64,000 nucleotides of DNA from Enterobacteria phage phiC600P9. This document shows, in pieces, positions 1,646 through 6,089 of this stretch; position 1 is the first letter of the stretch; every line of letters starts with the position of its first letter. The position numbers and the translations under genes were made by a program. Location of the stretch: sequence record MZ681930.1. One strand, written 5' to 3'. The notes beneath the pieces were generated by a model. That model ran no database searches. It saw only the letters and a list, made by a program, of their open reading frames with translations, and was not told the origin of the DNA.

Positions 1646-1701
1646 AATGTTTTCCTCATTTGTATAGGCTCATAATATCTCAATCATGAGCCTATGTAAA
1701 C

Positions 1702-1965
1702 TTATTTCATATTATTGAAATATTCTTCTGCGATTTCGTCGTTATCATGGTAAACTTTAGAAGACAGTTTAACATAACTTTCAGCAGTGAACATGTTAAT
1801 CACAACCTTTACAGTATACCACTGACCATCTTCATTACCCATTACTGCGTAAGTTTCAAACATCGGATGATCAGGACCGATAACTTTAATATCATTCACT
1901 GTACGACCAAAATCTTCTGAAACACATTTCATAAAGAAGTTGAACAGTTCACCGTAATTATCCAT
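1702..1965 (-). CDS. hypothetical protein, about 87 aa
   Basis: ORF-track start at 1977 is TTG; in-frame ATG at 1963-1965 has SD GGAGAA 5 nt upstream. Confidence 0.4.
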   Translation of the reverse strand: MDNYGELFNFFMKCVSEDFGRTVNDIKVIGPDHPMFETYAVMGNEDGQWYTVKVVINMFTAESYVKLSSKVYHDNDEIAEEYFNNMK

Positions 1966-2138
1966 TTCATTCTCCAAGTTGTTTTCTGTATCAGTAGTTG
2001 ATAGTTGTATAGTACCATGGAAGAACAGGGAAGTTTTAGGGAATTCTAGGGCAGGGAGGGGAAATCAAAGGATAGGATAATATATTATAAAGGGTAGAAA
2101 CTAAATGATGTCTAGAGAGGCCTGGAAAGGCCTAGATA

Positions 2139-2166
2139 CCAAAAAGCCCCAACCTTTCGGCTAGGG
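2139..2166 (-). terminator. intrinsic terminator hairpin (minus strand), copy 1
   Basis: Minus-strand RNA AGCCCUAGCCGAAAGGUUGGGGCU followed by UUUUU; near-identical to the copy at 2696-2726. Confidence 0.6.
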
Positions 2167-2175
2167 CTAAGAATG

Positions 2176-2649
2176 TTATTTGATTTGTTTAGCAGACCAA
2201 ATGCGGTCTTTAATAATTTTTTGGATGTCTTCAACATATTCAAGAGAGTGAACATGTGGGTTATCTTTGAAACTATAAGCACGAGCTAGCTTTTGGCCTT
2301 CAGTTTTGATTACTAAAAGCTCTTTAAGGATAGCTTCATATCTGGAGATAATTCCTTTAACGATATTTTTCTCTTGTGTGACTTTAGGATCTGCTTTAGG
2401 AGCAGGTTTACCCGAAGCCTTTGCAAAAGCAGCGCCAGTAGCAACTAAACTTTTCCAGGCCATACTAACTGCATTCCCTGTAAATCCTTCGGCTTTCATA
2501 TCACGAGCAAATTGGAATCGTGATTCATCGGAAGCATCTTTATAGGAATATTTACCCGCGGCAATGGCTGCTTTTGCGACAGCTTGAATTTCGGTGCTAG
2601 ATGCTTCATTTAACACCGCTTCATTTAAAAATTGAGCATATGATTTCAT
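2176..2649 (-). CDS. internal-protein-like protein with N-terminal capsid targeting sequence, 157 aa
   Basis: N-terminus MKSYAQFLNEAVLNEA resembles the T4 internal-protein CTS (MKTYQEF...) with L-x-E cleavage motifs for prohead protease gp21; SD AGGAAA upstream. Confidence 0.5.
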   Translation of the reverse strand: MKSYAQFLNEAVLNEASSTEIQAVAKAAIAAGKYSYKDASDESRFQFARDMKAEGFTGNAVSMAWKSLVATGAAFAKASGKPAPKADPKVTQEKNIVKGIISRYEAILKELLVIKTEGQKLARAYSFKDNPHVHSLEYVEDIQKIIKDRIWSAKQIK

Positions 2650-2695
2650 CTTATTTCCTGTTTTAATTCGTGGTTTTAATATACTTATTTATACC

Positions 2696-2726
2696 AAAAA
2701 GCCCCAACCTTTCGGCTGGGGCTAAG
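2696..2726 (-). terminator. intrinsic terminator hairpin (minus strand), copy 2
   Basis: Minus-strand RNA AGCCCCAGCCGAAAGGUUGGGGCU followed by UUUUUGG; perfect 7-bp stem. Confidence 0.65.
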
Positions 2727-3034
2727 CCTTGCGGCAACCTTGTCGGGGTTCCACCTGCTAAGGCAAGTGTTTGTACGAAACGCCGGGACTTGAACCCGGT
2801 TATTAAGTAGTTGACGCTACTCAATATTTTTAAAAGGCCATATCTCGACCATATCCGAACGTTCCGTCAAAAACGCTACTCGGCTTACGGCAAAGATATT
2901 TCCTCGAATCGATAATTCGGTGCGCCGTTTCTGCTGTGATGTAAGGGGATATTAACAAATCGTAAAGATTTATTAAGACCAGTCCTTACTCAGGGAACAT
3001 CAGTCCGACGACTTACCGGTAGCGACCCGGTTTC
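2727..3034 (-). ncRNA. possible small stable RNA(s) downstream of the tRNA cluster (T4 species 1/2, RNA C/D analogue)
   Basis: About 300 nt with no ORF between gene 3035-3385 and the terminator; contains a tRNA T-arm-like element (CCGGGTTCAAGTCCCGG on minus strand, + coords 2783-2799) but no full cloverleaf; positional analogy only. Confidence 0.25.
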
Positions 3035-3385
3035 TTAATATTCTTTTAAAGCATCAATCTGTTCACGGCGTTTACGCCATAAATCAATTGCTTCATACGC
3101 GGATTCAGCATTTCGAATTGGTCGGCATTTATGTAAAGACTTGTGATTTTGATATTTTGTAGATAATGGAATTTTATCTAAAAGGTCTTTACGTTCAAAG
3201 TATTCGTAACCATCTAAACCAAATGAACGATTTTTGAGAAATTGCCAATGACCGTATTCGTTTTGGATGTAAATATAATCCGCGTGTTGATAAAGCAAAT
3301 TAGTTTCACGAGATGAGATATGGTTTTCATATTCATTGAAGTAAAATGTTAAATCATGAACTACTAAATAAACATTACCTTTCAT
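3035..3385 (-). CDS. hypothetical protein, 116 aa
   Basis: ATG at 3383-3385 with SD GAGGA upstream; no motif recognised. Confidence 0.45.
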   Translation of the reverse strand: MKGNVYLVVHDLTFYFNEYENHISSRETNLLYQHADYIYIQNEYGHWQFLKNRSFGLDGYEYFERKDLLDKIPLSTKYQNHKSLHKCRPIRNAESAYEAIDLWRKRREQIDALKEY

Positions 3386-3403
3386 ATTTTCCTCACTTAT
3401 AAT

Positions 3404-3479
3404 TGGTCGAGGCAGTAGGGATCGAACCTACGACCCAGGACTTAGAAGGTCCTTGCTCTTCCTTCTGAGCTATGCCTCG
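3404..3479 (-). tRNA. tRNA-Arg (anticodon TCT), CCA encoded
   Basis: Hand-folded cloverleaf on minus strand: 7-bp acceptor stem, anticodon loop CTTCTAA, T-arm GTAGG-TTCGATC-CCTAC. Confidence 0.8.
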
Positions 3480-3483
3480 TATT

Positions 3484-3558
3484 TGGCGGACGTGATAGGA
3501 TTCGAACCTATAACCAATCGCTTAACAGGCGATCGCTCTGCCATTGAGCTACACATCC
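3484..3558 (-). tRNA. tRNA-Asn (anticodon GTT), CCA encoded
   Basis: Hand-folded: acceptor GGATGTG/CACGTCC, anticodon stem ATCGC/GCGAT with loop CTGTTAA, T-loop TTCGAAT. Confidence 0.75.
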
Positions 3559-3562
3559 AAAT

Positions 3563-3649
3563 TGGTGGGGAGTGATGGAGTCGAACCACCCGAGTCGCAA
3601 TGACAATGGATTTACAGTCCACACCGCTACCTCTACGGGATAACTCCCC
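3563..3649 (-). tRNA. tRNA-Tyr (anticodon GTA), type II with long variable arm, CCA encoded
   Basis: Hand-folded: acceptor GGGGAGT/ACTCCCC, anticodon loop CTGTAAA, 87 nt. Confidence 0.7.
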
Positions 3650-3658
3650 AAATTAATT

Positions 3659-3733
3659 TGGTGGCCCTGGGTGGAATTGAACCACCATCTGGCGATTATG
3701 AGTCGCTTGCTTGAACCTTCCAGCTACAGGGCC
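3659..3733 (-). tRNA. tRNA with CAT anticodon (Met, or Ile2 if lysidine-modified like T4 tRNA-Ile)
   Basis: Hand-folded: acceptor GGCCCTG/CAGGGCC, anticodon loop CTCATAA, T-arm GGTGG-TTCAATT-CCACC. Confidence 0.75.
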
Positions 3734-3734
3734 T

Positions 3735-3810
3735 TGGTGCTGATTGACGGAATCGAACCGCCGACCTTCTCATTACAAGTGAGTTGCTCTACCTACTGAG
3801 CTAAATCAGC
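3735..3810 (-). tRNA. tRNA-Thr (anticodon TGT), CCA encoded
   Basis: Hand-folded: acceptor GCTGATT/AATCAGC, D-arm GCTC-AGTAGGTA-GAGC, anticodon loop CTTGTAA. Confidence 0.8.
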
Positions 3811-3815
3811 AAAAC

Positions 3816-3905
3816 TGGCGGAGGCGATAGGATTTGAACCTATGAGTCGCCGGAGCGACTGCCGGTTTTCAAGACCGGTGCATTAAACCACTCTGCCACG
3901 CCTCC
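3816..3905 (-). tRNA. tRNA-Ser (anticodon TGA), type II, CCA encoded
   Basis: Hand-folded: acceptor GGAGGCG/CGCCTCC, anticodon stem CCGGT/ACCGG with loop CTTGAAA, long variable arm. Confidence 0.8.
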
Positions 3906-3911
3906 AAATAT

Positions 3912-4520
3912 TTATATATTGCTAATTTGATTTAGAATTCTTTTTGCTTGAGTATGACTTACGCCAATATGCTTAGCATATTTAGATAATTCACCACGCT
4001 TAGAAAAATCATATAATTTAGAAATTTCTATTCTTCTTTTTCTTTCATCCGCAGAAACTTTTGCTTCGTTTGCTTTTGCTATTTTACGTTTAGCTTCTTG
4101 AGAATGATTTTTACCAGCAAAGCCATTCTTCATTAATCCATTTGAAGACCATCCTTTTAATTTTCCGTTAGAATGTGCCTTTTTAACACCCAATGAAATT
4201 AATTCGCGTTGCTGATCTGTCATAGGATAATTATTTATATGGTCCCATCCACCTTCTCCGCCAAGTTTTAAATTATACACATCTGGTCTATTTAAAAACT
4301 CTTCTGTGACAATATTTTTCTCGGCTTCAAGCATAGATTCTTTATCATCAAAATACTCTAATATTTCTTTAGAGAAATTTTCTATACCATACTTGTCTTG
4401 GGCTCTTTTTAATAATTTACCAGAACCCATATATCCATCATCTAAATTTTCGGTAGAATGCACACCAATATAAATTTTATTATTAATTTTATTTGTTATT
4501 TTATAAAGATAAAAATGCAT
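3912..4520 (-). CDS. segB: SegB-like GIY-YIG homing endonuclease inside the tRNA cluster
   Basis: GIY-YIG motifs (YLYKITN...KIYIGVHS...DGYMGSGK); position between tRNA sub-clusters as in T4. ORF track extends to 4562, but the ATG at 4518-4520 puts the GIY motif at residues 4-6 as in other Seg proteins. Confidence 0.7.
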   Translation of the reverse strand: MHFYLYKITNKINNKIYIGVHSTENLDDGYMGSGKLLKRAQDKYGIENFSKEILEYFDDKESMLEAEKNIVTEEFLNRPDVYNLKLGGEGGWDHINNYPMTDQQRELISLGVKKAHSNGKLKGWSSNGLMKNGFAGKNHSQEAKRKIAKANEAKVSADERKRRIEISKLYDFSKRGELSKYAKHIGVSHTQAKRILNQISNI

Positions 4521-4566
4521 ATCAGTCCCTAATAAAGAACTGAGCGTCTCACGACGAGTCATAAAT

Positions 4567-4640
<74 letters not shown>

Positions 4641-4645
4641 AAATT

Positions 4646-4732
4646 TGGTGCGAGAAGTGGGACTCGAACCCACAAGGAAATCATTCCGCAGCATTTTAAG
4701 TGCTGTGCCTTTACCAATTTGACCATTCTCGC
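4646..4732 (-). tRNA. tRNA-Leu (anticodon TAA), type II, CCA encoded
   Basis: Hand-folded: acceptor GCGAGAA/TTCTCGC, anticodon stem CAGCA/TGCTG with loop CTTAAAA, long variable arm. Confidence 0.8.
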
Positions 4733-4733
4733 G

Positions 4734-4806
4734 CTGGGAATAAAGGACTCGAACCTTTGCATCCTGGAATCAAAATCCAGTGCCTTACCAACTTGGCTAA
4801 TTCCCA
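4734..4806 (-). tRNA. tRNA-Gln (anticodon TTG), U1-A72 start, CCA not encoded
   Basis: Hand-folded: acceptor TGGGAAT/ATTCCCA, anticodon stem CTGGA/TCCAG with loop TTTTGAT; the U1:A72 start is a feature I recall for T4 tRNA-Gln. Confidence 0.75.
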
Positions 4807-5831: not shown

Positions 5832-6089
5832 TTATTTTAAATCTTCTAATCGTTTCTTCATCTTAGAACCGTTCTTAGCGATTTCGCCTGCATCAGAGCA
5901 TAATGCTAAAAGCGCTTTAACTTTAGTTTGGTCTCCTTTAAAAGATGAAGGATCGACTGCAGCAGCAAGTTCTTTAATACGAGAGAAAAGACGCTCAGCT
6001 TCAGCTAAAGCCATTCCAAGCTTTACTTCCATACCATGAGAAGATTCAGTAATAGTAGTTTTTGTAGCAAACTCTTTGAAAGTTTTCAT
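5832..6089 (-). CDS. internal protein (ipI-locus type) with capsid targeting sequence, 85 aa
   Basis: N-terminus MKTFKEFATKTTITE-SSHG matches the T4 internal-protein CTS pattern with an I-x-E gp21 cleavage motif; position immediately before 57B corresponds to the T4 ipI locus. Confidence 0.6.
   Translation of the reverse strand: MKTFKEFATKTTITESSHGMEVKLGMALAEAERLFSRIKELAAAVDPSSFKGDQTKVKALLALCSDAGEIAKNGSKMKKRLEDLK

Follow-up and report, generated by a model that had tools for sequence, protein, structure and literature searches.

A terminator-flanked gene between rnaC and e.8 of phage phiC600P9 encodes a candidate internal head protein

The interval between rnaC and e.8 in phage phiC600P9 contains a 157-codon gene, ORF157, which probably encodes a late-expressed internal head protein of the T4 type, carried by a recombining cassette at a third internal protein (IP) locus. 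The anatomy of the module, the conservation of its motifs and the joints that separate its presence from its absence in relatives were observed directly. On this sequence evidence, ORF157 is best read as an addition to the known class of T-even internal proteins, essentially without annotation so far, whose locus does not normally figure among the IP loci. The window analysed is a stretch of 64,000 nucleotides corresponding to positions 64002-128001 of the phiC600P9 genome (MT630408, 164,691 bp), on which the whole-genome scans were performed. All coordinates given without a genome name are those of the window.

The region 1650-3450 was 94-98% identical to hundreds of T-even relatives and 100% identical to phiC600P9 (Tequatrovirus). 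Read from high coordinates, the minus strand carries gene 1, 57A, 57B, the ipI-locus gene for an Ip5-like internal head protein (5832-6089, minus strand; PHROG 3499), trna.4, trna.3 and trna.2. These are followed by nine tRNAs with a segB-like gene (3404-4806), a 116-aa ORF (3035-3385), rnaD (2919-3035), rnaC (2774-2912), ORF157 (2176-2649), e.8 (1702-1977), e.7 and e.6. The upstream neighbour of ORF157, rnaC (species 1 RNA), was located by alignment to the annotated T4 rnaC and from the RB68 annotation; the downstream neighbour is e.8. An initial annotation of this DNA had described a 157-aa ORF at 2176-2649 with the start MKSYAQFLNEAVLNEA, across the tRNA cluster from the ipI-locus gene; the ORF is indeed present on the minus strand with this start, and its position relative to the cluster was borne out. 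Rfam contained no model for rnaC or rnaD and gave no match at either of the hairpins described below.

ORF157 is flanked by a direct repeat of 36 nt, located at 2136-2171 and 2691-2726, whose two copies are identical at 35 of 36 positions and lie 555 nt apart. Near-identical minus-strand terminator hairpins had been placed around the gene at 2139-2166 and 2696-2726; our analysis upheld them, with a repeat slightly wider than first described. Each copy, taken on the minus strand, has the sequence AGCCC(C/U)AGCC-GAAA-GGUUGGGGCU-UUUU, a terminator-like structure of 10 pairs, and the folding energies of the two hairpins were -18.3 and -20.6 kcal/mol (z -3.7 and -3.4). The upstream copy U (2691-2726, minus strand; stem 2700-2723, GAAA loop, U-run) is an intrinsic terminator ending the tRNA-rnaD-rnaC transcription unit, and is homologous to the single hairpin of T4 (L002 6831-6858). 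The downstream copy D (2136-2171, minus strand; stem 2145-2168) provides ORF157 with its own terminator, which would be a copy of the rnaC terminator, and insulates e.8. With up to three mismatches allowed, the 28-nt core of the repeat had two occurrences in the window, whereas 100 shuffles gave an expectation of 0.00, and a search of the whole 164,691-bp genome recovered the same number, two only, even with up to five mismatches.

On the minus strand, the upstream terminator runs directly into GGTATAAATAAG. The putative T4-type late promoter TATAAATA (2686-2693, minus strand) begins within the repeat, its first three bases (TAT) being the last three of copy U, and stands 36 nt upstream of the ORF157 ATG. 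It is followed by a Shine-Dalgarno sequence, AGGAAA (2654-2659, minus strand), which was identified from the sequence, is separated from the ATG by 4 nt and has been conserved among relatives. The octamer TATAAATA was kept at the same site in RB68, SYGD1, PinkRuby, L018, L019, L025, L042, L039 and L012, a set that takes in every Tequatrovirus example and the other occupants of the site, and its Mosigvirus counterpart is TAATAAATA. Yet its frequency in the AT-rich window is close to that expected by chance (10 and 14 occurrences on the two strands), so that the late-promoter call is made on placement and conservation only. No sigma-70-like promoter was found on the minus strand at 2650-2700. 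The downstream repeat copy is followed by CTAGG, hence there is no promoter at that position.

Comparison of the rnaC-e.8 interval in relatives revealed several states. In T4 and in Yersinia phage PST, one hairpin and no ORF is found between the e.8 and rnaC flanks. In phiC600P9 and RB68, a hairpin, 519 unique bp containing ORF157 and a second hairpin are present. RB14 has only ORF187, with a different terminator (CCCTATC...GATAGGG), and PinkRuby, KRT47, L019 and L025 have ORF157 and ORF187 in tandem. ORF187 encodes 187 aa, starts with MKTYAEFLTEAAKL and is also CTS-bearing. The occupied site of the window and the empty site of T4 and PST have the same outer flanks and differ by exactly 555 bp, corresponding to one repeat plus 519 unique bases. 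In all four aligned states, each joint maps to the terminator hairpin or to its GGGCTTTTT tail. In RB68 (33/36 identical positions), SYGD1 (27/29) and a Mosigvirus (26/32), the gene likewise lies between duplicated hairpins. Further occupants were detected after the rnaC terminator and TATAAATA in T4-like contigs, namely a 126-aa ORF (start MYTVNEFLAETEIITEAG) and a membrane-like ORF. The reading of the gene as a self-contained cassette, put forward in the initial annotation, is strongly supported, as the putative late promoter, Shine-Dalgarno sequence, ORF and terminator form one module, whose presence/absence boundaries in relatives lie exactly at the repeat. The possibility raised there that the hairpins might be ordinary terminators scattered over the genome did not hold, given that only two copies exist and that cassette boundaries are found in relatives. 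The rnaC-e.8 interval may thus represent a third, polymorphic IP locus with 0, 1 or 2 modules.

The initial annotation had further proposed that the cassette was acquired by recombination between the repeated terminators. The joints at the terminators agree with this proposal, but not the direction, loss in T4, PST and RB14 being likelier than gain in phiC600P9. ORF157 sits between rnaC or the tRNAs on one side and e.8 on the other in every case examined, and this synteny extends to Tequatrovirus, Mosigvirus (75% aa identity) and T4-like phages of Klebsiella and Yersinia (N-terminal domain). Between genera, the divergence of ORF157 (about 75-77% nt identity) is similar to that of its neighbour e.8 (82% nt). 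Synteny across genera and flank-like divergence together make ancestral presence followed by loss in T4, PST and RB14 more parsimonious than recent gain. Homologous recombination between the 36-nt copies would delete the module and leave a single copy, as in the T4/PST state, and the sequences indicate that T4 most likely lost the ORF157 module in this way, through its repeated terminators. The states alone cannot prove insertion as against deletion, and re-insertion is possible by the reverse reaction, in which integration of the excised circle would restore the module. Two stem alleles, AG and GA, were observed, which G-U wobble allows to pair with an identical 3' arm, and each was found at positions U and D in different phages; both copies carry the same allele in 4 of 11 genomes. 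The occurrence of common alleles at the two positions fits an exchange of sequence between the copies.

The second line of evidence concerns the N-terminus of the protein. Residues 1-10 of T4 IPIII are enough for the packaging of foreign proteins (PMC9026906, summarising Mullaney and Black 1996). Mutagenesis of the IPIII CTS indicated that residues 4 and 7 mainly govern targeting and residues 8 and 10 processing, and gp21 cleaves after L/I-x-E (PMC9026906). The T4 proteins start with MKTYQEFIAE|A (IPII/IPIII) and MKTFKEF...ITE|A (IPI). The ORF157 start, MKSYAQFLNE, aligns with that of IPII/IPIII and has all four determinants of the IPIII CTS (Y4, F7, L/I8 and E10), with Ala as the next residue. 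Its CTS-coding segment (2605-2649, minus strand) specifies MKSYAQFLNE|AVLNE|A, in which gp21 is predicted to cut twice, after E10 and after E15; at the level of the motif, LNE|A is found at residues 8-10 and again at 13-15. The two L-N-E motifs reported earlier are thus present, and go back to a tandem duplication of 15 nt (GCTTCATTTAA at 2603-2613 and 2618-2628), which is absent from SYGD1, L018 and the Mosigvirus homologues, and from more distant homologues.

We then aligned nine divergent relatives, 21-49% identical to ORF157 except for one Mosigvirus homologue at 78%. Seven columns were invariant: M1, F7, L8 and E10 in the CTS, and F47, D50 and K98 in the mature part. Position 4 was Y or F in eight members and V in one. 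Synonymous codon changes were observed between members of the family (TAT/TAC, TTA/TTG), indicating that the peptide is what selection conserves. When the family was compared to T4 IPII and IPIII with hhalign, the N-terminal region alone aligned (the CTS and a weak extension; 27 and 41 columns, probability 22-28%). Likewise, BLASTP of ORF157 against ORF187 aligned only residues 1-11, of which 8 were identical. The pattern MK[ST][YF].[EQK][FL] matched 5 of the 1,567 M-starts of the genome. The two classical IP loci account for three of these: the Ip5-like gene of the ipI locus and two genes of the ipII/ipIII locus, just outside the window, which belong to PHROG 3155 ('internal virion protein') and PHROG 3966. 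The other two are ORF157 itself and a 54-aa ORF beside the primase gene, in an early-gene region. This last match shows that the CTS motif is not exclusive to recognised IP loci and slightly weakens its specificity. Conservation of positions 4, 7, 8 and 10 across a family whose identity is elsewhere under 40% and the small number of matching M-starts argue that the CTS-like start, as originally described, is not a coincidence, and at the sequence level the CTS reading of ORF157 is well supported. The designation of ORF157 as a 'second' CTS gene was a miscount, since five CTS-type starts exist in the genome, and the ipII/ipIII locus accounts for two. Orthology of ORF157 with T4 ipII/ipIII was considered and rejected; those genes lie at another locus, where phiC600P9 has other CTS genes.

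The predicted layout of the ORF157 product comprises a CTS propeptide (residues 1-10 or 1-15), a helical domain (17-75), a K/P-rich linker and a helical hairpin (88-155). The mature form would have 142-147 aa, a mass of about 15.6-16.1 kDa, 20 Lys and a pI of 9.5-9.6; at 9.5, against 8.9-9.5 for the T4 IPs, the protein is similarly basic and lysine-rich. An AlphaFold model was of moderate confidence (pLDDT 72, pTM 0.44), with the small helical domain 17-75 well predicted, a disordered propeptide, a low-confidence linker and a long helical hairpin at 88-155. Foldseek searches of PDB and BFVD with this model returned matches limited to its own family. A moderate model and an uninformative fold search thus offered no functional clue.

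No family was found for ORF157 in Pfam or NCBIfam. It matched PHROG 2280 (function unknown) over the full length of the profile (E = 2.9e-60), as did, with lower significance, ORF187 (E = 9.7e-54) and the 126-aa ORF of L039 (E = 7.2e-23). An exhaustive profile search of 1.8 billion representatives recovered 13 proteins, all relatives from its own family, with no bridge to a known family; where their sources could be identified, all were T4-like phages. The N-domain is kept between the coliphage and the Klebsiella/Yersinia-phage versions, with replacement of the C-terminal half. ORF157 was found in 511 phage records, its carriers including RB32, RB51, RB68 and AR1, and the family spans Tequatrovirus, Mosigvirus and Klebsiella-phage genomes. 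Its public name is 'hypothetical protein' in more than 400 database copies, including those of the curated genomes RB14, RB32, RB51 and RB69. One Klebsiella-phage member, named 'Internal head protein', is the sole case of naming as an internal protein, and ORF187 carries one spurious JGI/IMG label, 'isopenicillin N synthase-like dioxygenase'. Another 157-aa ORF, at L008 6975-7448, was considered as a paralogue of ORF157 and rejected, as it belongs to a different PHROG (3155). In the searchable literature, a search on the family by ORF names, CTS peptides and virion proteomes found no proteomic, N-terminal sequencing or genetic evidence; the proteomics of phage SH7, with 13 proteins, was uninformative.

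These features suggest the following course of events. ORF157 would be transcribed from the late promoter TATAAATA, directly past the rnaC terminator. The 10-residue CTS would dock the product on the scaffolding core of the prohead, and the prohead protease gp21 would cleave it after L-N-E, at E10 and at the duplicated site E15. The basic, lysine-rich mature protein would then be kept in the head with the DNA and be injected into the next host. There, by analogy with T4 IPI, IPII and IPIII, it might disarm a host defence, a role which is speculative. We infer late transcription, incorporation into the prohead core, cleavage and retention with the DNA from the conservation of the motifs together with the known behaviour of the T4 CTS (PMC9026906, PMC3012670); injection is inferred as well. 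The absence of ORF157 from T4 indicates that the gene is dispensable for that phage.

Two other fates of the protein were weighed against packaging and injection. ORF157 could be a CTS-targeted scaffold or core accessory comparable to gp67 or gp68, which would be degraded by gp21 and largely expelled before DNA packaging, without being injected. The all-helical model, with its long helical hairpin and K/P-rich linker, is scaffold-like, and conservation of the N-domain across genera next to a variable C-terminal part could reflect core binding. A third L-x-E motif, LKE at residues 108-110 within the C-terminal helix, could also mean an additional cleavage of ORF157, but the residue that follows it is Leu, not a small residue as after E10 and E15. 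Moreover, T4, PST and RB14 build normal heads without ORF157, which is therefore not needed for morphogenesis, and its presence/absence polymorphism is typical of accessory IPs; we consider a scaffolding role improbable. Alternatively, ORF157 could be an ordinary late cytoplasmic protein whose CTS-like start is a relic of recombination with IP genes, the 5' coding region having served as a DNA linker with no role in packaging. In favour of this reading, a CTS-type start is also present on the 54-aa ORF of the early region, and ORF157 and ORF187 share 76% identity over 42 nt of their CTS-coding DNA, a stretch that could act as a recombination joint. The pattern of conservation described above, with positions 7, 8 and 10 invariant, Y or F at position 4 in eight of nine relatives and codons that change synonymously, points instead to selection on the CTS peptide. 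In addition, as the first 10 residues of IPIII are sufficient for packaging (PMC9026906), a late-made protein with the same determinants should be packaged. A cytoplasmic protein with a relic CTS is accordingly rated as unlikely, on a par with a scaffold component.

As to the repeat, the two hairpins could be independent terminators which converged on a GAAA-tetraloop design and took no part in the gain or loss of the gene. An 18-mer scan of viral contigs did return mostly unrelated phages that have the loop with its 3' arm, CCGAAAGGTTGGGGCTTT, in common, on many contigs of about 9.5-251 kb (several of 37-42 kb); this terminator shape is thus common, and, the sub-motif being generic, the rnaC-linked matches alone were used. 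However, the identity between the copies reaches past the stem-loop into both tails, over the whole 36 nt in phiC600P9 and at 38 of 40 positions in PinkRuby. A third copy of the hairpin is absent from the genome, the empty sites keep exactly one copy with both outer flanks intact, and the stem alleles are common to both positions. Convergence appears very unlikely in view of these observations, and we retain the reading of ORF157 as an internal head protein gene in a cassette bounded by duplicated terminators.

Compared to known systems, ORF157 most closely resembles the T4 internal proteins. Like IPI, IPII and IPIII, it has a 10-residue CTS with the same determinants and an L/I-x-E site followed by Ala. 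T4 IPs are, as ORF157, small, basic, lysine-rich, non-essential and variable between relatives, and are expressed from a late promoter, which is putative in the case of ORF157. The mature part of ORF157 has no sequence relationship to other IPs, which is the norm for this class (PMC3012670, PMC9026906, PMC12373910). It differs from the T4 IPs in its locus, rnaC-e.8 rather than ipI or ipII/ipIII, in the duplication of the cleavage site, and in the fact that it has no Ip name in the curated genomes RB14, RB32, RB51 and RB69. The ORF157 model is two-domain and helical, without a fold match, whereas IPI* has a compact beta-sheet fold (PMC3012670). Ip4-Ip10 and further variants are alternative T-even IPs of the polymorphic ipI locus (Repoila et al. 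1994, as reported in PMC12373910 and PMC4122927). As far as these accounts describe them, they are interchangeable CTS-bearing ORFs present in variable number in one slot, as are the rnaC-e.8 modules; the latter occupy another locus, belong to another family (PHROG 2280) and have joints that can be read exactly in the duplicated terminator.

Each of T4 Ip1-3 inhibits a distinct GmrSD type IV restriction enzyme, and the known alternative Ips (Ip4-10) leave several active GmrSD variants unexplained (PMC12373910). The PHROG 2280 family, present in more than 500 genomes with the same packaging tag, is a candidate source of the missing injected inhibitors, and the ORF157 CTS may provide a small variant for the engineering of protein delivery by T4. 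A broader proposal, which we put forward only tentatively, is that rnaC-e.8 is an unrecognised third IP locus in which PHROG 2280 modules (ORF157, ORF187 and the 126-aa variant) are swapped at terminator and late-promoter joints, possibly by way of mini-circles. These modules would encode injected effectors in which a conserved N-domain is combined with exchangeable C-terminal domains, directed against defences beyond those countered by Ip1-Ip10.

The exchange of modules at such joints has a precedent in RB49/phi1, where terminator/promoter-mediated shuffling with mini-circle intermediates has been shown experimentally (PMC2839356, PMC4122927). In the PeSL cassettes (Arbiol et al. 2010, PMC2839356; Comeau et al. 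2014, PMC4122927), as in the ORF157 module, a stem-loop terminator abuts a promoter, a Shine-Dalgarno sequence and an ATG. Direct copies flank a small accessory ORF, indels between relatives have their crossovers inside the motif, and the module is transcriptionally insulated. The PeSL promoter is early and sigma-70-like, in contrast to the putative late TATAAATA of ORF157, which does not form the composite PeSL motif. Unlike PeSL, the ORF157 repeat is essentially the terminator alone, with 3 nt of promoter inside. A late promoter and a terminator-only repeat thus place the ORF157 module outside the PeSL definition. The rnaC-e.8 interval extends the idea of PeSL shuffling from early to late regulatory joints, and provides a very clean natural case of modules gained and lost by way of a duplicated terminator, with states 0, 1, 1' and 2 and joints located at base level.

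The CTS-coding region of ORF157, the 157-aa minus-strand ORF that is a candidate internal head protein, contains a 15-nt tandem duplication (window 2603-2628), which provides the protein with two predicted L-N-E-A sites for the prohead protease gp21, in the arrangement FLNEA-VLNEA. The duplication is present in most Tequatrovirus copies and absent from SYGD1, from L018 and from the Mosigvirus homologues.

In other T4-like contigs, the rnaC terminator and TATAAATA are directly followed by other ORFs. The occupant in L039 is a 126-aa CTS-like ORF of PHROG 2280 (+65 to +446 after the hairpin, in gene orientation), which starts MYTVNEFLAE/TEIITE/AG and has a long P/K-rich tail, while that in L012 is a 184-aa membrane-like ORF without CTS (+54 to +609, same orientation). 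In RB69, two overlapping annotated ORFs, ORF148c and ORF149c (L045 7429-7991), lie between e.8 and the stable-RNA region. They look like a frameshifted or mis-sequenced homologue of ORF187, the 187-aa CTS-bearing ORF found at the rnaC-e.8 site in RB14, and their similarity to ORF187 is remarked in the RB14 record.

The annotated rnaC 3' end is separated from the terminator hairpin by a spacer of about 50 nt (window 2724-2773, GCAGGTGGAACCCCGACAAGGTTGCCGCAAGGCTT). This spacer is nearly invariant in Tequatrovirus, Mosigvirus and other T4-like contigs, which suggests that it has a function within the precursor or transcript of rnaC. In a scan of viral contigs (L009-L043), the 18-mer CCGAAAGGTTGGGGCTTT, corresponding to the hairpin loop plus 3' arm, recurred among unrelated phages, in a group of contigs that have a GC content of about 45% (several are 37-42 kb long) and carry it at a conserved position. 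The terminator design is thus widespread.

Two further CTS genes are located at the classical ipII/ipIII locus of phiC600P9 (MT630408 60974-61781). The first (L008 6975-7448) encodes a 157-aa protein assigned to PHROG 3155 (internal virion protein), the second (L008 7465-7782) one of 105 aa assigned to PHROG 3966 (unknown function). Between vs.8 and these two genes there is no gene of denV size. Outside the window, a 54-aa minus-strand ORF (MT630408 17415-17579) starts with MKTYKEFIKEDMVAG, which matches the IP-type CTS almost perfectly and includes an I-K-E site. This ORF, assigned to PHROG 1823 (unknown function), adjoins the primase gene in an early-gene region. Either it encodes a hidden packaged peptide, or it shows that the CTS motif also occurs outside internal proteins.

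The stable-RNA cluster also differs from that of T4. A 116-aa minus-strand ORF (window 3035-3385; PHROG 3355, unknown function) is placed between rnaD and tRNA-Arg, whereas in T4 rnaD directly abuts tRNA-Arg; this ORF is thus another insertion relative to T4. The tRNA set (window 3404-4806) comprises Arg, Asn, Tyr, Met, Thr, Ser, Gly, Leu and Gln, against Arg, Ile, Thr, Ser, Pro, Gly, Leu and Gln in T4. Finally, the segB-like GIY-YIG gene (window 3912-4562) lies between tRNA-Ser and tRNA-Gly, but next to tRNA-Arg in T4.
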